A model generated the notes under the pieces. The model saw only the letters and a list, made by a program, of their open reading frames with translations. It had not been told where the DNA came from and did not search any database. From a virus: a DNA stretch of 64,000 bases. The stretch is taken from IMG/VR virus record IMGVR_UViG_3300042308_001049, positions 1 through 64,000 of that record; one strand, given 5' to 3'. Position numbers and translations under genes: made by a program. Positions 42,572-48,864 of this stretch are shown here, in pieces; the first letter of the stretch is position 1, and every line of letters begins with the position of its first letter.

Positions 42572-43741
42572 ATGAATGTATATGAAGAAGTAGTTAAACA
42601 CTCAAAGAAGTTAATGTTTGACGAACCATTCTATGGGTTGATGCTCATAGCGATGAATAAGGAACTTAGTGAGCGAATTGACACTGCATGTGTTACTCGA
42701 GATAATATCAACACTAAGTTGATGGTCAATCCTGAGTTTTGGGCTACATTGGATGAGAGTACTAAAACAGGTGTTCTTAAACATGAGTTGCTCCATATCG
42801 CGTTCTTTCACCTACTTAATATGGATGGTTTTCCAGATCGTAAACTACACAACGTAGCCGCGGATTTGGAAATTAACCAGTATATTGAGGATAATTATAA
42901 AGGAGAAAAATGGGATGGTTTAGAGATTCATAAGGAACCATTTGCTAAACTTAATCTTGAACCTAAACAAGGTACTAAGTATTACTACTCAATGCTCCAG
43001 GAGGAAATTCAAAACAATCCTGAAGGTGATGTAGCCAAGTTTATGGAAGGAATGGATCCGATGCATGAGTTATGGGAAGCATTTGATGGTTTGTCTGATG
43101 CTGAAAAGAAGCTTATTGCTAAACAAATCGACCACCAACTCAAAGAAATTGCTGATCAGGTTCAAAAGAGCTGTGGTACTATACCAGGTGAGTTGAAAGA
43201 TTATGTTTTAGGTTTGTTTGAGATGGAAGAACCAGTATTGGACTGGAAAGCTTACCTACGACGTTTTAATGGTATGTCTCAAAAGATTCTTACTAAAAAG
43301 ACTCGTCGTAAACCATCTCGACGTTACCCATCTAATCCCGCCCTTAAAGTAAAGCCTAAGAAACGTACACTTGTTGCCATAGACACATCAGGTAGCGTAA
43401 ATAACGATGAATTAAAGGAGTTCTTTAATGAAATCTATCACATGTATAAAACCGGAACTGAGATTACAGTGGTTGAATGTGACGCTAAAATTCAACGAGA
43501 GTATGAATATAAAGGTAAGTTAGAAGAAATTAAGGTAGCAGGACGTGGTGGTACTGATTTTGAACCAGTGATGGTTTACCTAAAAGAACATCAAAACAAG
43601 TTTCAAAACCTAATTTATTTTACTGATGGTGAATGTAGTGCTCCTGAAACAAAACCGATGAAACCTATTTTGTGGGTTCATAGTTCACGTTCACCTATCA
43701 ATGAAGAACTCCCAGGAGCTAAAATTAAAATTACCCGATAA
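42572..43741 (+). CDS. DUF2201-type metallopeptidase plus vWA protein
   Basis: HELLH, N.AADLEINQ; MIDAS DTSGS, GGTDF, FTDG. Confidence 0.9.
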   Translation: MNVYEEVVKHSKKLMFDEPFYGLMLIAMNKELSERIDTACVTRDNINTKLMVNPEFWATLDESTKTGVLKHELLHIAFFHLLNMDGFPDRKLHNVAADLEINQYIEDNYKGEKWDGLEIHKEPFAKLNLEPKQGTKYYYSMLQEEIQNNPEGDVAKFMEGMDPMHELWEAFDGLSDAEKKLIAKQIDHQLKEIADQVQKSCGTIPGELKDYVLGLFEMEEPVLDWKAYLRRFNGMSQKILTKKTRRKPSRRYPSNPALKVKPKKRTLVAIDTSGSVNNDELKEFFNEIYHMYKTGTEITVVECDAKIQREYEYKGKLEEIKVAGRGGTDFEPVMVYLKEHQNKFQNLIYFTDGECSAPETKPMKPILWVHSSRSPINEELPGAKIKITR

Positions 43742-44526
43742 TGGCATCGAAAATTTCATTAAATAATCCTAATCCATGGAAACAACCTCTAGATGTGATT
43801 CCACTACCCTCTAATATTGAGGAAATTGTATATCCACTATTGGGTATGTGTAATAAGTTGGTTTTAGGTGGTAGTTTAGGGCTGTATGTTATGGACATTA
43901 TGGAATACAATTTTAATAAGCGTAAACCTGATATTGACTTTTCCTTAACTGAGCCTTTAACAGTTGAAGAACTTAATACTATTAAGGATTTCTTCCAGTT
44001 GGGGTTTGTATTAGGAAATAATGACTATGATTTTGAATCAGTTCAGGCTAGTCCTACTGGAGATAAAATAATAAAAACAAAATCAGCAGAACACTTCTTA
44101 ACTAAAGAACTTATCCAACTTTCGAAGTTGGATGAGAAGGGAAATGTTCTATATACTATTGACTTCTTTAATTCACAATATATGAAGTCAAAAGATGTAG
44201 TTGAGGTGAGAATACCATTTCAAGATAACCCATCTTCTAAATTCCCACTTCGAGTAAATCACCCAGCTATCACAATCTCATACAAGGCACGATACGCTTA
44301 TGATACTCGAGTAGGTAAACAGTTTAAACACTGGGAAGATATTGAAAAGATTGATAAGAAGAAGTACTTTCAAATCATTAAAAAGATTAAAACTAAACAA
44401 GTTAAGTCTACAACAACAGATACTTCTTCTAAAGACTCTTACAAGACCAAATCATACTTTGATCCATACGATAATATGGAAACAGCTTCCTCAAGTAGTA
44501 TGAGCTGGGGTAACTTACCATTCTAA
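43741..44526 (+). CDS. Pol-beta-superfamily nucleotidyltransferase-like protein
   Basis: LGGS...PDIDF...TIDFF. Confidence 0.65.
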   Translation: MASKISLNNPNPWKQPLDVIPLPSNIEEIVYPLLGMCNKLVLGGSLGLYVMDIMEYNFNKRKPDIDFSLTEPLTVEELNTIKDFFQLGFVLGNNDYDFESVQASPTGDKIIKTKSAEHFLTKELIQLSKLDEKGNVLYTIDFFNSQYMKSKDVVEVRIPFQDNPSSKFPLRVNHPAITISYKARYAYDTRVGKQFKHWEDIEKIDKKKYFQIIKKIKTKQVKSTTTDTSSKDSYKTKSYFDPYDNMETASSSSMSWGNLPF

Positions 44527-44583
44527 AGTTTGGCTACAGCGTAAATAGATGTTATATTTATATCATAGAAAAAAATAAATGTT

Positions 44584-44781
44584 ATGGATAAGTTTAAGCA
44601 AACGTTAGTTGAAGCAATTGAGGAGAATAAAGAAGAAATGATTTCTCCATCACGCGAATATACAGATAATGAAATCATCTGGATGCGTGGTTACACTCAG
44701 GCGCTTCAAGACATGTTAAATGACTTCACTGAGGACTATAACAAGTTCATTGAAGATCTTATTAAAGTTCAACTTAACTAA
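44584..44781 (+). CDS. Hypothetical protein
   Basis: 65 aa; early promoter at 44529. Confidence 0.75.
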   Translation: MDKFKQTLVEAIEENKEEMISPSREYTDNEIIWMRGYTQALQDMLNDFTEDYNKFIEDLIKVQLN

Positions 44782-44796
44782 TATTTATATTTTATT

Positions 44797-44876
44797 GCAC
44801 CCGTGGTGAAACAGGTAGACACAAGGGACTTAAAATCCCTCGCGCAAGCATGCCGGTTCGATTCCGGCCGGGTGTA
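44797..44876 (+). tRNA. tRNA-Leu(TAA)
   Basis: GCACCCG/CGGGTGT acceptor, AGGGA-CTTAAAA-TCCCT, GGTTCGATTCC. Confidence 0.93.
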
Positions 44877-44881
44877 CAAAG

Positions 44882-44941
44882 AAGGGGAGACTAAGGTTTC
44901 CGGCTACAAGTTGTTCGCGACAATAAGGTAGGTAGCCCCTT
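44882..44941 (+). ncRNA. Candidate ~60-nt three-way-junction RNA
   Basis: AAGG/CCTT, GGAGAC/GTTTCC, GGCTAC/GTAGCC, TTGT/ACAA helices between two tRNAs. Confidence 0.45.
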
Positions 44942-44948
44942 AAAACAT

Positions 44949-45022
44949 GGTCCGGTAGCTCAGTTGGATAGAGCATCGCACTTCTAATGCGACGGTCGAA
45001 GGTTCGAATCCTTCTCGGATCA
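44949..45022 (+). tRNA. tRNA-Arg(TCT)
   Basis: TCGCA-CTTCTAA-TGCGA; canonical D and T arms. Confidence 0.95.
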
Positions 45023-45030
45023 CTAAATAC

Positions 45031-45107
45031 TGGCAAGTATCTCCTCAAGCTTATACCTTGTAGAAAGAGTAACTGGTCACATGAGGGTTCGAGTCCCTTC
45101 TTGCCAA
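45031..45107 (+). tRNA. Atypical tRNA-like gene, anticodon-like TAT, no D-arm
   Basis: TGGCAAG/CTTGCCA acceptor, GAGGG-TTCGAGT-CCCTT T arm, CAAG-CTTATAC-CTTG arm only 8 nt after acceptor. Confidence 0.6.
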
Positions 45108-45108
45108 C

Positions 45109-45233
45109 AGAGAGAGGTAGTGAAGCTGTAGTTGGGAGGTAGAGTGTATTAGTTACTGAAAAAGGGTTTATAGTAGGTAGGCGTCACTTATTGCACTCAA
45201 CCAGAAACCCTGAAAGACCCGAAACCTCTCTTT
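45109..45233 (+). ncRNA. Candidate ~125-nt pseudoknotted RNA
   Basis: Closing AGAGAGGT/ACCTCTCT; crossing helices GAGTGTA/TGCACTC and AGGGTTT/AAACCCT. Confidence 0.55.
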
Positions 45234-45236
45234 AAA

Positions 45237-45322
45237 GGAAGGTTACTCAAGTGGCCTAAGAGGATGGTTTGCTAAACCATTAGGGTGTAACAGCCGCGAG
45301 GGTTCGAATCCCTCACCTTCCG
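45237..45322 (+). tRNA. tRNA-Ser(GCT)
   Basis: ATGGT-TTGCTAA-ACCAT; long variable arm; G discriminator. Confidence 0.93.
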
Positions 45323-45339
45323 CATAATACCACGTTATA

Positions 45340-45801
45340 ATGAACTCAATATTCCGAAGCGGCACAACTCATAAACCAATACAGTTAGTACCTTATCTAC
45401 TGGATTACATACGAAATAATCCAGAGACAAAAATATATGTTGGTTCTGACTCTCAAAACCGTGGTCCTGAAACTGTTTACTGCACAGCAGTAGTACTCCG
45501 ATATAGAAGCAGAGGTTGTCATGTTTTGTACCACAAAACAAAAGTACCAATTGTTAGAGATTTTTGGTCGCGTTTATGGAAAGAAACAGAATTGTCAATC
45601 GAAGCTGCTCTATTCATTACAGAAAATAGCCCACTTAAAATCGAATCAATCGATCTGGATTTTAACGACGATGAATATAAAGCATCTAACAAACTTGTAG
45701 CAGCATCAAAGGGTTGGGTGCAAGCAACTGGCTTTAGAAGTACTACAAAACCAGCTCTTCAAATCGCGACAAGAGCTGCCGACCATATTATACGGACTTA
45801 A
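45340..45801 (+). CDS. RNase H-like YkuK (DUF458) family protein
   Basis: IYVGSDSQ, RLWKE.ELS, DLDFN, AADH. Confidence 0.85.
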   Translation: MNSIFRSGTTHKPIQLVPYLLDYIRNNPETKIYVGSDSQNRGPETVYCTAVVLRYRSRGCHVLYHKTKVPIVRDFWSRLWKETELSIEAALFITENSPLKIESIDLDFNDDEYKASNKLVAASKGWVQATGFRSTTKPALQIATRAADHIIRT

Positions 45802-45809
45802 CAAACAAA

Positions 45810-45878
45810 TTTGGTTATCCAAAATATTGTTCGTATATTTATATAGTTGAAAAAGCAACATGTTATTTGACATATTGG
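45810..45878 (+). promoter_or_regulatory. Early-type promoter plus boxA-like antitermination element
   Basis: TTTG-N20-TATATTTA then TGTTATTTGACATATTG ahead of tRNA run. Confidence 0.6.
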
Positions 45879-45885
45879 TAAAAAT

Positions 45886-45965
45886 GCCGAAGTGGTGGAA
45901 TGGTAGACACGCTGGTCTTAGGAACCAGTGCCTAGTGTGTGTGGGTTCGAGTCCCACCTTCGGTA
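45886..45965 (+). tRNA. tRNA-Leu(TAG)
   Basis: CTGGT-CTTAGGA-ACCAG. Confidence 0.93.
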
Positions 45966-45973
45966 CATAAATT

Positions 45974-46045
45974 GCTCTTGTAGCGCAGCGGTAGCGCAGT
46001 TGACTGTTAATCAATTGGTCGTTGGTTCGAATCCAGCCAGGAGCG
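45974..46045 (+). tRNA. tRNA-Asn(GTT)
   Basis: GTTGA-CTGTTAA-TCAAT. Confidence 0.95.
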
Positions 46046-46052
46046 CAAATAT

Positions 46053-46124
46053 TGTGGGATAGAGCAGAGGTAGCTCGCAAGGCTCATAACCTTGAGGTCG
46101 GGGGTTCGATTCCCTCTCCCGCTA
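46053..46124 (+). tRNA. tRNA-Met(CAT), initiator-like
   Basis: CAAGG-CTCATAA-CCTTG; T1:T72 mismatch. Confidence 0.88.
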
Positions 46125-46129
46125 CAAAT

Positions 46130-46206
46130 AGTCAGGTGGGCGTAATGAGGCATTGGTGGCCGAATCCTATATGGTTGCTTCCCCGGTTCGAGTCCGGCCC
46201 TGACTA
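46130..46206 (+). tRNA. tRNA-like gene without canonical D or anticodon arms
   Basis: AGTCAGG/CCTGACT acceptor and CCGG-TTCGAGT-CCGG T arm; middle forms a wobble-rich stem with 9-nt loop. Confidence 0.5.
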
Positions 46207-46218
46207 CAATAATTACAA

Positions 46219-46306
46219 GGAGGTTTGGCAGAGCGGTCGAATGCGGCAGTCTTGAAAACTGTTGACTGTAACAGGTCCCGGGGTTCGAATCCCTGAGCCT
46301 CCGCCA
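46219..46306 (+). tRNA. tRNA-Ser(TGA), encoded CCA
   Basis: GCAGT-CTTGAAA-ACTGT; long variable arm. Confidence 0.95.
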
Positions 46307-46379
46307 CGAGATGTAGCGCAGTTGGTAGCGCACCTGGTTTGGGACCAGGGGGTCGCAGGTTCGAACCCTGTCATCTCGA
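46307..46379 (+). tRNA. tRNA-Pro(TGG)
   Basis: CTGGT-TTGGG-ACCAG region; canonical arms. Confidence 0.95.
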
Positions 46380-46385
46380 CTATAT

Positions 46386-46456
46386 TACCCTCTCGTCTAA
46401 TGGCAGGACAATTGGTTTTGGTCCAATTAATTGGGGTTCGAGTCCCTGGGGGGTAA
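46386..46456 (+). tRNA. tRNA-Gln(TTG)
   Basis: ATTGG-TTTTGGT-CCAAT. Confidence 0.92.
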
Positions 46457-46462
46457 CAAAAT

Positions 46463-46544
46463 TGGAAGGTGGGTGAGTGGTTAAAACCGGCAGACTGTAA
46501 ATCTGCTCCCATTGGGTACGGCGGTTCGAATCCGTCCCTTCCAA
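46463..46544 (+). tRNA. tRNA-Tyr(GTA)
   Basis: GCAGA-CTGTAAA-TCTGC; variable arm. Confidence 0.95.
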
Positions 46545-46549
46545 CAACT

Positions 46550-46623
46550 GGACCTTTAGCTCAGTCGGTTAGAGCAGTTGACTCATAATCAATTGGTCGG
46601 GGGTTCGAGCCCCTCAAGGTCCA
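46550..46623 (+). tRNA. tRNA-Ile2(CAT) (lysidine type) or elongator Met
   Basis: GGACCTT/AAGGTCC acceptor resembling Ile2; GTTGA-CTCATAA-TCAAT. Confidence 0.85.
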
Positions 46624-46696
46624 CAAAATAAAGTTTGGCCCAGTCAGATTTTATTTATATATTTATATCATTAAATAATTAATTAACAAAAACAAA

Positions 46697-46843
46697 ATGA
46701 AAAAAGCATTTTTCGCAATCGCAATCGCTGCTGTAGCTGTAGCTTGTTCCAACGAAGCAGCAACTACTGAATCAACCACAGTAGACACTCTTGTAGTATC
46801 TACCGATACCACAGTTACAGCTGACACTACAGTAGCAGAATAA
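46697..46843 (+). CDS. 48 aa lipoprotein
   Basis: MKKAFFAIAIAAVAVA-C lipobox; Thr-rich tail with DTL and DTT; promoter at 46634. Confidence 0.8.
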   Translation: MKKAFFAIAIAAVAVACSNEAATTESTTVDTLVVSTDTTVTADTTVAE

Positions 46844-46919
46844 TACTGAGTCTAGCCTGAAAAACGACCTCCTCCAGGTTCTTTGAGAACGTATGCTTGA
46901 AGTTTTGTAAGGGAGATTT

Positions 46920-46992
46920 GCCTCAATAGCTCAGTTGGTAGAGCCACTGATTTGTAATCAGTAGGTCGCTGGTTCAAGTCCGGCTTGAGGCT
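46920..46992 (+). tRNA. tRNA-Thr(TGT)
   Basis: ACTGA-TTTGTAA-TCAGT. Confidence 0.95.
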
Positions 46993-46994
46993 CA

Positions 46995-47289
46995 AAAGTA
47001 ATGTGGCTGAATAAAGGGTTGAGAGCTCTTAAGGCACTGGTTGAACTGCTGAAAAGCAGGAATATTGGGTCATACAGACATGTGAGGTAAAACCACCTAA
47101 ACTACAGGGTAGAATGCGCAACCTGGTAGCCTCTAGGGTCCCGTCAAGGTTATATTCATGATCTCTGCCGCGGGTGTTGGTAAGCAATCCAACCAATCGT
47201 TAACAGCAGAATTAGCTACTCTGTTGGGTTGTGGGTGAAAGGGGGCATGTCCAGGACGTATGGGTAGTCAGGATTCCCATCATTACTTT
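46995..47289 (+). ncRNA. Candidate ~295-nt structured ncRNA
   Basis: Closing AAAGTAATG/CATTACTTT abutting both flanking tRNAs; many internal helices; no ORF. Confidence 0.65.
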
Positions 47290-47291
47290 AT

Positions 47292-47364
47292 GCGAAAGTA
47301 GCTCAGTTGGTAGAGCATGACCTTGCCAAGGTCAGGGTCGCCGGTTCGAATCCGGTCTTTCGCT
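47292..47364 (+). tRNA. tRNA-Gly(GCC)
   Basis: TGACC-TTGCCAA-GGTCA. Confidence 0.95.
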
Positions 47365-47412
47365 CTAATTTTACCTATATGTTTCTTGATCTACGCATAT
47401 ATGTATATGCAA

Positions 47413-47850
47413 ATGGATATAAATAAAATATTTAATCTATTCGATTCAACAGAATTTGATACTCCCTTAGAGCAAAAAGCTAAGGCAGCTGATGAACTTA
47501 TTTTAATTCAAGAAACCCCTATATTTTGGGTAGGGATGCTTAAAAAAATTATATTAAATAATAAAGCTTTCTACCATCAACTTAAACATCATCTTCCTGA
47601 ACAATTAATTAAAGAAATAGCTGGTTTAGATGATATAGCCGATTTAGTCACTTATTCAAGGGTGTGGTTTTATGCTTCTAAATTAAATTTAAAACGTAAA
47701 ATAGATATAGATGCTATAAAAACTTTTGCTGATGATAATTTAGTATTTGCCTTAGTTATGGCTATTAAATTCTTTGAATGTAAAGAAGAGTATGAGAAAT
47801 GTGCTCATTTAAAACAAATCCAAGATATAGTTGAGAAATTTATCAAGTAA
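47413..47850 (+). CDS. Hypothetical protein (C-terminal EEYEKCAHL, UVR-like)
   Basis: Start trimmed to exclude tRNA-Gly overlap. Confidence 0.75.
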   Translation: MDINKIFNLFDSTEFDTPLEQKAKAADELILIQETPIFWVGMLKKIILNNKAFYHQLKHHLPEQLIKEIAGLDDIADLVTYSRVWFYASKLNLKRKIDIDAIKTFADDNLVFALVMAIKFFECKEEYEKCAHLKQIQDIVEKFIK

Positions 47851-47904
47851 ACTTGATTCCAACATATATCTACATTACATTATAACCCAACAAAAATATT
47901 AAAC

Positions 47905-48078
47905 ATGAGAAATCCAGATCTAGCAGTTCAAAAACTAGAGAAACTTGAAGGCAAGTTAACCTCTATGGGTGTTTTAATTACACGCCCAACCACAACTAAA
48001 GAACAATACCAAAAACTTATTGCAGAGGCACATGATATTATCAGTGACCTTAAAATGATGGTACAACGTCAAAACTAA
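47905..48078 (+). CDS. 57 aa helical protein
   Basis: MRNPDLAVQKLEKLEG... Confidence 0.6.
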   Translation: MRNPDLAVQKLEKLEGKLTSMGVLITRPTTTKEQYQKLIAEAHDIISDLKMMVQRQN

Positions 48079-48093
48079 TTTTAAATAAAAGTT

Positions 48094-48864
48094 ATGAATC
48101 TTACAGCAGAACAAATCCAAAACAATTGGGAAGTATTTTTAGGACTTATTGAAGAACATATCTCTTCACCTCGTAAAGAAAAACTCCTAGACTTCTATAA
48201 TCAGTACGCTGATCGCTTAATGCTAATGCCTGCTGCCCATAAAAAAGAATACCATAATGCTTTCCCAGGTGGTTATGTAGAACATGTTATTCGTGTTGTA
48301 CGTTGTGCTCTTAAACAACATCAACTATGGGCTGATGAAGGAGTAGATACAAGTACATACACTATGGAAGAACTTGTTTTTGCTGCAATCAACCATGACC
48401 TAGGTAAGATGGGTGATGAAGAAAATGAAGCTTATATTCCCCAAACTGATGAATGGAGACGAAATAAGCTAGGTGAAGATTATATGCATAATGATAAAAT
48501 TGCATTTGCCTCAGTTCCTGACCGTGGTCTTTATCTTCTTCAATCTCATGGCATTCAATATACCTTTAATGAGATGATAGGTATTCAAACTCATGATGGT
48601 TTATATGATGAAGCAAATAAGAAGTACTTTATGGGATTCACTCCTGAGGTTAAACCGCGTACTTCACTTCCTTATATTCTCCATTTTGCTGATATGATGG
48701 CTGCTCGTATTGAGTTTGAACGTGAATGGTTACCTAAGTTTAAAAATGGAACTGCTAAAACAGCCCCAGTTAAAAAAACAACTAACACTCCTTCAGTCAC
48801 CAAGCAAAAAGCACTTAGTGGAGTTAGAAGTGAAGGATTAAAAAATCTATTAGATAGTATATGA
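48094..48864 (+). CDS. HD-domain phosphohydrolase
   Basis: YH.AFPGGYVEH, HDLGK, HDG, ADM. Confidence 0.88.
   Translation: MNLTAEQIQNNWEVFLGLIEEHISSPRKEKLLDFYNQYADRLMLMPAAHKKEYHNAFPGGYVEHVIRVVRCALKQHQLWADEGVDTSTYTMEELVFAAINHDLGKMGDEENEAYIPQTDEWRRNKLGEDYMHNDKIAFASVPDRGLYLLQSHGIQYTFNEMIGIQTHDGLYDEANKKYFMGFTPEVKPRTSLPYILHFADMMAARIEFEREWLPKFKNGTAKTAPVKKTTNTPSVTKQKALSGVRSEGLKNLLDSI

Follow-up and report, generated by a model that had tools for sequence, protein, structure and literature searches.

A conserved, structured RNA of about 295 nucleotides (nt) lies between two transfer RNA (tRNA) genes of a phage; its two ends resemble manA RNA (Rfam family RF01745), and two of its loops are palindromic. 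The element occupies positions 46995-47289 on the plus strand of a 64,000-nt window, the whole stretch of DNA that was analyzed, which comprises positions 1 to 64,000 of IMG/VR virus contig IMGVR_UViG_3300042308_001049 (130,563 bases, estimated to be 81% complete). It is a real, conserved, structured non-coding RNA gene. With moderate confidence, we further interpret its product as an expanded, manA-like phage RNA that is excised by tRNA processing and that assembles with itself. The element and its immediate neighbors are as follows.

46920-46993, plus strand: tRNA-Thr(tgt) (ARAGORN; 70.5 bits with Rfam, which puts the end at 46992)
46995-47289, plus strand: the whole structured RNA of about 295 nt, from the 5′ strand to the 3′ strand of terminal helix P1 (296.6 bits at 46995-47299 with its own covariance model, R1)
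47292-47365, plus strand: tRNA-Gly(gcc) (ARAGORN; 71.1 bits with Rfam)

An initial annotation of this region, made from its letters, had proposed that a terminal helix of 9 base pairs begins and ends 3 nt away from the neighboring tRNAs. The helix exists, with AAAGUAAUG (46995-47003) pairing perfectly with CAUUACUUU (47281-47289), and the spacing is correct to within 1 nt, the measured gaps being 1-2 nt on the tRNA-Thr side and 2 nt on the tRNA-Gly side. The tRNA-Thr gene has no encoded CCA, and CAAAAG comes after the discriminator. To judge from position, release by RNase P or by tRNA 3′ processing would fit such abutting tRNAs. Five of the six internal helices that had been described are present and belong to the covariation-supported consensus, namely CUGC/GCAG (47046-47049 with 47056-47059, capped by a GAAA loop), CUAC..GGG/CCUGGUAG (47102-47110 with 47121-47129), GUUGG/CCAAC (47176-47180 with 47189-47193), AUGGG/CCCAU (47260-47264 with 47276-47280) and the long-range GACAUGU/GCAUGUC (47077-47083 with 47245-47251). 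The sixth, AACAG/CUGUU, had been placed in the wrong register, and the covarying helix at that location pairs CAGCAGA (47204-47210) with UCUGUUG (47220-47226). GC content is indeed elevated, at 0.44-0.485 within the element compared with 0.25-0.38 just downstream. The stated absence of an open reading frame (ORF) is nearly accurate, in that only overlapping frames of 26-55 amino acids occur; relatives differ in the strand, reading frame and length of their longest stop-to-stop stretch.

Three alignments carry the evidence for the fold. Alignment A1 was made with MAFFT from 16 distinct homologues, and A2 (64 rows) and A3 (73 rows) were fitted to a covariance model and for this reason lean toward the structure. 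In A1, 96.8% of cells are paired, as against 85.9% in shuffles (0 of 500 as high), and 39 of 77 pairs have changed on both sides; slid controls of this alignment yield 5-10 such pairs, with 31-45% of cells paired. On the 64 distinct rows of A2, 97.0% of cells are paired and 56 of 75 pairs have changed on both sides (slid controls, 16-21), and on the 73 distinct rows of A3 the corresponding values are 97.2% and 62 of 80 (slid controls, 19-24). RNAalifold finds 71 pairs in A1, 34 of them with compensatory changes, and the count of 77 adds P1. A UGUG/CACA helix that the same program proposed (columns 9-12 with 80-83) was dropped in favor of P1; it never varies informatively. P1 itself is the weakest helix in the family, with 75.8-79.8% of cells paired and double changes in 5-7 of 8 pairs.

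The resulting fold has ten covarying helical elements and is closed by P1. From 5′ to 3′ these are P1, a manA-like 5′ module that includes P2, then P3, and then P4 around four arms (P5/P6, P7, P8 and P9); the arms enclosed by P4 are followed by a purine-rich joiner, P10 and the 3′ strand of P1. In this copy, the parts of the fold are located as follows.

46995-47003, plus strand: P1 5′ strand, AAAGUAAUG, pairing with 47281-47289
47004-47035, plus strand: manA-like 5′ module, GUGGCUGAAUAA...UAAGGC, aligned to the RF01745 consensus
47037-47068, plus strand: P3 hairpin, 47037-47041 with 47064-47068 and 47046-47050 with 47055-47059
47077-47083, plus strand: P4 5′ strand, GACAUGU, pairing over long range with 47245-47251 and enclosing the central domain
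47092-47137, plus strand: three-part arm, 47092-47094 with 47234-47236, 47096-47098 with 47135-47137, 47102-47103 with 47128-47129, and apical stem 47107-47110 with 47121-47124
47140-47174, plus strand: P7 hairpin with a 25-nt loop, stem 47140-47144 with 47170-47174
47176-47193, plus strand: P8 hairpin, GUUGG-UAAGCAAU-CCAAC, with the conserved loop pattern GG-UAnnCAAn-CC
47194-47231, plus strand: P9 arm, stems 47194-47198 with 47227-47231 and 47204-47210 with 47220-47226, 9-nt apical loop at 47211-47219
47232-47251, plus strand: conserved purine-rich joiner UGUGGGUGAAAGGGGG, then the P4 3′ strand (47245-47251)
47260-47280, plus strand: P10 hairpin, AUGGG-UAGUCAGGAUU-CCCAU, the manA-like last hairpin (RF01745 alignment), stem 100% paired
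47281-47289, plus strand: P1 3′ strand, CAUUACUUU, from the sequence

The 5′ module consists of UG, a 3-base-pair helix (47006-47008 with 47033-47035), an internal loop (GAAUA/AA) and P2 (47014-47020 with 47024-47030) with its GAG loop. In A1, both of its helices are 100% paired, with double changes in two of three and four of seven pairs, respectively. The GAAA tetraloop of P3 (47051-47054) is identical in all 69 distinct rows with letters there. P4 is 100% paired and has four of seven pairs changed on both sides in A1, rising to six of seven on the 73 rows of A3, in which the P7 stem shows double changes in all five of its pairs. The joiner of the two most distant full-length relatives (L013, 2784-3087, and L107, 292-605) reads GUGGAUGAAUAA / GUGGCUGAAUAA. 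This is the 5′ motif a second time, which suggests an internal duplication or pseudo-symmetry of the fold.

Homologues of the element form a sizeable family. A pattern for the 5′ motif (scan 1) matches at least 115 viral loci (L001-L115) with highly diverse downstream sequences; a same-strand tRNA is nearby in 23 of 116 among the matches listed, the window's own being counted. A 17-nt stretch is common to this element and to three of these loci, which are close or distant copies of it. Of the 41 viral loci found with a 15-mer from that stretch (scan 2), 23 are family members, and all 57 loci recovered from metagenomes with a longer pattern (scan 3) are members as well. Two scans blind to the loop, which returned 41 and 7 new loci, contributed 9 further members. 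The total stands at 84 matches, or 73 distinct sequences that are 51-95% identical to this copy, and in these viral and metagenome scans the members so far come only from uncultivated viral contigs and metagenome contigs. DNA of this copy was found in runs labelled freshwater or lake-water metagenome. All five virus records counted carry one copy each, including one complete 174-kb genome with terminal repeats, and R1 finds one copy in the element's own 130.6-kb record. In the accessible portion of the full-text literature there is no description of this family or of tRNA-embedded manA RNAs; supplementary gene contexts may list some.

Both ends of the element point to manA RNA. When positions 46850-47450 were searched permissively with Rfam 15 (E up to 10), manA was the sole match within 46994-47291. 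RF01745 scores 30.0 bits against a gathering score of 55.2, with E values of 6.8e-6 in 601 nt, 7.2e-4 in the window, and 3.4e-7 when it is run as a single family against the whole record. Its alignment extends from end to end (model positions 1-192), with 182 nt in the middle left unaligned. The aligned parts are P1 (UAAUG/CAUUA), GUGGCUGAAUAA, the short hairpin, UAAGG, and the last hairpin AUGGG-UAGUCAGGAUU-CCCAU. The optional first hairpin of the model was placed on the end of tRNA-Thr, which is spurious. As in manA, P1 is followed by a module of GUGRCUGAAUAA, a short hairpin and UAAGG, which aligns column by column and has covarying helices; most relatives carry the variant CCGAAUAA or CCGAACAA in this module. 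Again as in manA, a last hairpin with an 11-nt loop leads straight into the 3′ strand of P1, and it is aligned with high posterior probability. The central multi-stem junction and long hairpin of manA (model about 65-150) are deleted or mispaired, and other covarying structure is present there.

The element is not a manA member by Rfam's own criterion. We read the likeness of its ends as distant kinship with manA, or at least as a shared core module, combined with a different and larger central domain. The initial annotation could not assign the element to a known family; no Rfam family matches it at threshold, and both ends match RF01745 below threshold. The new class of non-coding RNA that the annotation proposed is a real conserved structured RNA, although one that is better named an expanded manA-like variant, given the graded intermediates that exist. 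Specifically, relatives of the element score 31.1, 28.7, 12.6, 10.9 and 10.6 bits with RF01745, and a series of 11 loci that share the 5′ motif runs through 182.2, 66.0, 64.1, 51.9, 49.1, 34.9, 30.9 and 28.7 bits to no match in three. In the other direction, R1 gives 110.7 and 104.1 bits on distant full-length relatives, 35-52 bits on intermediate forms of 166-342 nt, and 20-25 bits, always end to end, on 188-nt cyanophage manA RNAs.

Position sets the element apart from the published view of manA, which describes these RNAs as probable riboswitches in 5′ untranslated regions (UTRs), as far as the accessible part of that report goes (Weinberg et al., 2010; PMC2864571). The element is not located in a 5′ UTR; tRNAs flank it here, and its relatives are flanked by tRNAs, transfer-messenger RNAs (tmRNAs), promoter-like boxes or terminator-like hairpins. 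We also observed that some threshold-passing manA RNAs (66.6-69.5 bits) have a tRNA gene 8-10 nt away on each side (L071, 5159-5328; L099; L041; L048), which is at odds with the 5′ UTR view. Because these manA RNAs are tRNA-flanked in four loci, the 5′ UTR feature of manA is itself doubtful.

Counts of gene context from 63 full-length distinct members reveal several ways in which the RNA is delimited.

5′ side: abutting tRNA, 18 of 63; abutting phage tmRNA, 5 of 63; TATATTTAT box within 45 nt, 26 of 63, including 8 just after a tmRNA; tmRNA 11-80 nt away and no box, 1 of 63; neither, 13 of 63, some on contigs too short to tell
3′ side: abutting tRNA, 17 of 63; GC hairpin plus U-run resembling a terminator, 39 of 63; neither, 7 of 63
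Both sides: abutting tRNAs, 15 of 63 (this phage and 14 others)

The precise tRNA punctuation reported in the initial annotation therefore holds here and in 14 other distinct relatives, as just one of several modes. The flanking pairs include Thr/Gly, Gly(tcc)/Asn, Gly(gcc)/Ala, Ala/Gly and Asn/Tyr. Because the flanking tRNAs vary, it is the RNA itself that is kept, and not one particular junction. In 25 of the 26 members with a TATATTTAT box, the box ends 2-14 nt ahead of P1. Another box comes after 19 of 41 U-runs, and such a fresh box argues that the hairpin ends a transcription unit rather than attenuating one. ARAGORN places a tmRNA directly upstream on the same strand with gaps of 1-5 nt in L139, L126, L141 and L257, and of 19-51 nt in L199, L117, L172 and L166. 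These upstream tmRNAs encode tags such as AEELSSFTFEDAMSFVGADYAVAA, and tRNA-Thr and tRNA-Met are often found beyond the terminator of the RNA; in some relatives, tRNA-Thr or tRNA-Met lies 29-34 nt beyond the hairpin and U-run. A search for a tmRNA in the phage's own record, which is 81% complete, returned weak tRNA-like matches and none over threshold. Overall, the context shows that the element is a stand-alone RNA and not a leader.

RNA from the element can be recognized in lake metatranscriptomes. Six such runs contain 33-48% of the sampled words of 46900-47400. Four runs were mapped on 46300-47900, and all four yield contigs of 117-241 nt with 0-1 mismatches that lie wholly within 47013-47259 (47019-47259; 47017-47254; 47013-47129 and 47100-47241; and 47039-47257, by run; depth 2-3.4). 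No contig falls on flanking coding DNA in these four runs, where the lack of coverage at 46624-46893 and 47380-47900 is not evidence of absence. Matches to the tRNA region were set aside as partial, mismatched contigs of other organisms' tRNAs. These data show that the element's RNA is present in RNA libraries, and they hint weakly that it exists as a molecule of its own. The initial annotation had named covariation and expression as checks on its proposal, and both are now found, in the form of pairs changed on both sides and RNA contigs confined to the element.

The loops of the element provide the evidence that bears on self-assembly. The apical loop of P9 holds the self-complementary UAGCUA (47213-47218), and a 6-nt palindrome, as UGAUCA, UAGCUA or UAAUUA, is found in 69 of 70 distinct loops. 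Read as pairs, its inner positions are GC in 49 rows and AU in 20, and AU in 50 rows and GC in 19, with all 69 rows complementary. Because the innermost two bases are adjacent and cannot pair within one chain, this palindrome points to two chains. A second self-complementary sequence, UGCGCA (47115-47120), occupies the apical loop of P6c in the three-part arm. It is the commonest form among members, and the variation of this loop was sampled only by the two loop-blind scans (9 new members), whose finds have UGUACA (in both clades), GGCC, GUAC, AUGCAU or GGCU; the central pair is CG in 64 rows and UA in 3 (A3). Among control loops, palindromes of at least 6 nt occur in 1 of 19 variants for P8 and 2 of 16 for P10. 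Switching between palindromes (GGCC, GAUC, AGCU) at adjacent loop bases is a property of the symmetric kissing loops that cryo-electron microscopy (cryo-EM) revealed in OLE and GOLLD RNAs, according to the sections available of that study (Kretsch et al., 2025; PMC12286853). The two palindromic loops of the element suggest symmetric intermolecular kissing loops through which its copies would stick together.

A third loop-loop helix joins AUGAU of the P7 loop (47158-47162) to GUCAG of the P10 loop (47267-47271). In the general form of this interaction (NNGAU with RUCNN), the variable pair p2-q4 is C-G in 15 members and U-A in 46 and is paired in 62 of 63; the pair that follows is retained in 44 of 63, and none of 2000 shuffles does equally well. 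This helix may form within one chain or between chains. A manA-style pseudoknot was rejected for this family; in 62 of 63 members, the loop of the last hairpin (P10) engages the P7 loop in its place.

We hypothesize the following course of events. In this phage, to judge from gene positions, the element would be transcribed together with the tRNA array, after which 3′ processing of tRNA-Thr by host enzymes would generate the 5′ end of the RNA and cleavage by host RNase P before tRNA-Gly would generate its 3′ end. In relatives, a promoter-like box or a directly adjoining phage tmRNA would mark the 5′ boundary, and a hairpin resembling an intrinsic terminator would mark the 3′ boundary. By descent, the RNA may be a distant, enlarged relative of manA that shares P1, the 5′ module and the last hairpin and has a different central domain, twice as large, as similarities of sequence and structure indicate. 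The covariation of the loops predicts that UGCGCA (47115-47120) and UAGCUA (47213-47218) kiss the same loops of other copies, and the P7-P10 loop helix and the GAAA tetraloop may contribute additional contacts. The working form would then be a homo-oligomer built of RNA only, whether a ring, a cage or a lattice, of the type described for manA, ROOL, GOLLD and OLE. The available part of a preprint on manA describes closed homo-oligomers built on pentamers, observed by cryo-EM, with octamers, decamers and a 60-mer held together by kissing loops and a GNRA-receptor contact, and mentions neither tRNAs nor palindromes (preprint 10.64898/2026.07.01.735769). The constant company of tRNAs and tmRNAs hints weakly at a role in the translation or RNA-processing machinery.

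Several observations weigh against an excised, self-assembling relative of manA. The match to manA does not reach the Rfam gathering score, relatives with CCGAAYAA in place of CUGAAUAA, which are the majority, score as little as 10.6-12.6 bits, and the graded series of scores is not independent evidence because loci L001-L115 were chosen by the very 5′ motif that drives it. The candidate pseudoknot of manA, between CUGA of the 5′ module and the loop of the last hairpin, pairs at its variable position in 24 of 62 members. A blastn comparison of this element and a clade-B member with 50,697 deposited phage records gave no match, and neither R1 nor the manA model finds anything (0 of 3 each) in Flavobacterium phage immuto, Microcystis phage Mel-JY01 and LR756508, named relatives that were chosen through their baseplate protein; the R1 scan was positive in 5 of 5 known-positive virus records. 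The frequency of UGCGCA is biased because this hexamer was part of the patterns that retrieved the 57 metagenome loci and most of the viral ones. Oligomerization is argued from sequence only, and the palindromes could serve another partner. The RNA contigs, with a depth of 2-3.4 and no DNA run alongside, cannot show ends, strand or level. Finally, single-sequence folding gives a minimum free energy z-score of -0.76 on the plus strand (51 of 200 shuffles fold as well) and -0.30 on the minus strand, and it cannot decide the matter because neither value is significant.

This last result is what chance structure in a GC-richer spacer would produce. We consider that explanation refuted, its probability being negligible, by the 73 distinct homologues that keep 97% of pairs with 62 of 80 changed on both sides, and by the existence of RNA contigs. 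A more serious competitor, though an unlikely one, is a stand-alone structured RNA that acts as a monomer; it might bind proteins as a scaffold, divert a host RNA-processing or defence factor as a sponge or decoy, or be a ribozyme, and its resemblance to manA would then reflect a convergent, reusable motif and not common descent. Such a monomer would sit well with the sub-threshold scores just given for relatives without CUGAAUAA, with the central 182 nt that do not align to manA, with the same short motifs in the ROOL consensus, which may therefore be portable modules, and with an oligomeric state that is predicted from the nucleotides themselves. It would not explain why self-complementarity is maintained in two separate loops by coupled changes at neighboring bases that cannot pair within one chain, and the graded intermediates and shared genomic context tie the family to true manA RNAs.

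Two further possibilities concern the neighboring genes, and we regard each as highly improbable. If the element were a riboswitch-like leader that controls downstream genes in cis, then the terminator-like hairpin of relatives would be its expression platform. The published rating of manA as a probable 5′ UTR riboswitch (in the part of PMC2864571 available) agrees with this idea, as does the hairpin and U-run right after P1 in 39 of 63 members, in some of which a tRNA-Thr or tRNA-Met gene follows 29-34 nt on. Yet with tRNAs directly on both sides, this phage and 14 other distinct relatives offer no space for a platform; where the hairpin exists, it begins past P1 and does not overlap it; a fresh promoter-like box comes after 19 of 41 U-runs; and the RNA contigs lie on the element and not on downstream DNA. 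The other possibility, to which we assign a similarly small chance, is that the element serves to process or space the tRNA array, or is what remains of a mobile or intron-like RNA, and is kept for maturation of the adjacent tRNAs and not for any function as a free molecule. The element is always beside tRNA or tmRNA genes, and a gene resembling those for HNH endonucleases lies about 3 kb upstream, as this explanation would have it. However, most relatives lack a 5′ tRNA and bring along a promoter-like box and a terminator of their own, the identity of the flanking tRNAs varies, no Rfam intron or ribozyme family matches at E values up to 10, and the conserved loops and 80 pairs go far beyond the needs of a spacer. 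An expanded, self-assembling manA-like RNA is the interpretation that we favor.

The phage locus itself has a uniform orientation. All long ORFs of the window are on the plus strand, and its proteins match phage families that include an ATPase, an HNH endonuclease and a baseplate wedge protein. For the baseplate protein, identity is 47% with its counterpart in Flavobacterium phage immuto, 46% with the one in Microcystis phage Mel-JY01 and 38% with that of an uncultured 484-kb phage. ARAGORN identifies 13 tRNA genes at 44797-47365, all on the plus strand, and Rfam at gathering thresholds reports 13 tRNAs and nothing else in the whole window. The following signals may relate to transcription.

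46635-46667, plus strand: likely promoter of the unit, TTGGCC-17-TATATT with TTGGCC as its -35-like hexamer, from a consensus scan; contains the TATATTTATA box at 46658-46667
19531, 21252, 44553, 45834, 46658, 49875 and 61637, plus strand: the copies of TATATTTATA

Downstream of this promoter candidate, the order is a 48-amino-acid ORF, tRNA-Thr, the structured RNA and tRNA-Gly. In the consensus scan around 46635-46667, promoter-like sites were no commoner than in shuffles. The seven copies of TATATTTATA in the window, all on the plus strand, compare with 1.58 expected, and none of 100 shuffles reaches seven. Because the same box occurs before the RNA gene and after its terminator in relatives, TATATTTATA is probably a promoter element of this phage group. 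No terminator-like sites were found within 44300-48200.

Other features of the tRNA array deserve mention. The 48-amino-acid ORF (46697-46843, plus strand), which has a TATATTTATA box 30 nt upstream, starts like a signal peptide, with a Cys after AVA (MKKAFFAIAIAAVAVAC...) and a tail rich in Thr and Val, and its product may be a small lipoprotein. A 153-amino-acid ORF (45340-45801, plus strand) that belongs to phrog_11311, a phage family of unknown function, breaks up the array, and a gene of the HNH endonuclease family (42572-43741, plus strand; phrog_1314, E 2.8e-69) is located just upstream of it. Two gaps in the array are without a long ORF: 45024-45236, between tRNA-Arg and tRNA-Ser (213 nt, GC about 0.44-0.45), and 46126-46218 (93 nt). 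On the plus strand at 45921-46032, the Y-RNA-like (YrlA) family gives a weak match (24.6 bits; gathering score 69) that shares positions with tRNA-Leu and tRNA-Asn, and a tRNA-like artefact is its likeliest cause.

Small stable RNAs within phage tRNA clusters have a precedent in RNAs C and D (species 1 and 2) of phage T4, which are about 120-140 nt long, are released from tRNA precursors by tRNA-processing enzymes, and have no assigned function. To our knowledge, these RNAs have no likeness to the element in sequence or fold, and we know of no evidence that they multimerize. Loop-loop pairing drives RNA-RNA assembly at the dimerization initiation site of human immunodeficiency virus type 1 (HIV-1), whose subtypes switch between two self-complementary hexamers, and in phi29 pRNA. 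These molecules are unrelated to the element and serve as a mechanistic analogy only. At E values up to 10, tRNA, tmRNA, RNase P RNA, group I and II introns, 6S, Y-RNA-like and all further families of Rfam 15 apart from manA do not match the element, and ARAGORN finds no tRNA or tmRNA within it.

Loop L9.3 of OLE RNA, a symmetric kissing loop, offers another parallel. As described in the portion consulted of Kretsch et al. (2025), adjacent loop bases covary there so as to swap palindromes, which was taken as pairing between two chains. OLE differs from the element in that it is bacterial, measures about 600 nt and dimerizes in complex with protein partners, and the two have no sequence likeness.

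ROOL (RF03087) and GOLLD resemble the element in being phage-encoded, ornate and often located beside tRNA islands. In the available text of PMC12286853, both are homo-oligomeric nanocages held by kissing loops and A-minor contacts, and GOLLD switches palindromes at a symmetric kissing loop. At about 580 nt and over 800 nt, these RNAs exceed the element in length two- to threefold. Neither model matches 46850-47450 at E values up to 10, and R1 finds only a 16-nt local match (6.4 bits) in ROOL RNA. Homology to ROOL was not accepted; with short local matches only, the two are not one family by any test run. The tRNA-island setting and the palindrome-covarying loops that the element has in common with ROOL and GOLLD bear on its mode of action and not on its membership. 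ROOL RNAs were also seen in this survey, one of them (305 bits) in a phage tRNA array (L087, 3144-3739, minus strand) and others in L008 and L043. The ROOL consensus holds GUGgcuGAAUA, an GGUAAUCAAUCC hairpin like P8 of the element, and GNRA hairpins, and the motifs common to ROOL and manA-type RNAs may be a shared module or may be due to chance.

Several parts of manA recur in the element: P1 that leads without a gap into GUGRCUGAAUAA, next to which come a short hairpin and UAAGG; a last hairpin whose 11-nt loop reads UAnnCAnnAUU and which runs into the P1 3′ strand; and a GNRA loop with several loop-loop contacts, which are predicted here and which form closed homo-oligomers in manA, according to the accessible preprint text. 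Both are carried by phages of aquatic bacteria, and some threshold-passing manA RNAs are likewise tRNA-flanked. The element differs in its length (about 295 nt versus about 190 nt), in a central architecture of one long-range helix that encloses four arms, in the P7-P10 loop pairing that replaces the candidate manA pseudoknot, and in two palindromic loops without counterpart in the aligned manA consensus.

For sixteen years manA was an orphan riboswitch candidate, and the 2026 preprint, in the part available, shows cages in vitro and leaves the biology open. The gene contexts described above, in which the RNA is either embedded like a tRNA or runs from promoter to terminator as its own unit, argue that manA-type RNAs are free, stable molecules and not mRNA leaders. 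The larger, well-covarying family with its two palindromic loops makes a clear prediction of self-assembly, and its alignment and model would allow a new Rfam-type family to be defined. Tentatively, we go further and propose that the element is a subunit of a previously unseen RNA-only assembly of large phages from freshwater and marine metagenomes, a "long manA" with two orthogonal symmetric kissing loops and a heterotypic pair that would be made like a tRNA from a tRNA/tmRNA island. Taken with the tRNA-flanked true manA RNAs and the short motifs in common with ROOL, it would imply that manA-type RNAs are no riboswitches and belong to a broad guild, perhaps a single lineage, of cage-forming phage RNAs linked to the island of translation RNAs. 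If so, these RNAs would join ROOL and GOLLD as multimer-forming phage RNAs of tRNA islands, and their link to tmRNA would sharpen the question of what role such assemblies play during infection.

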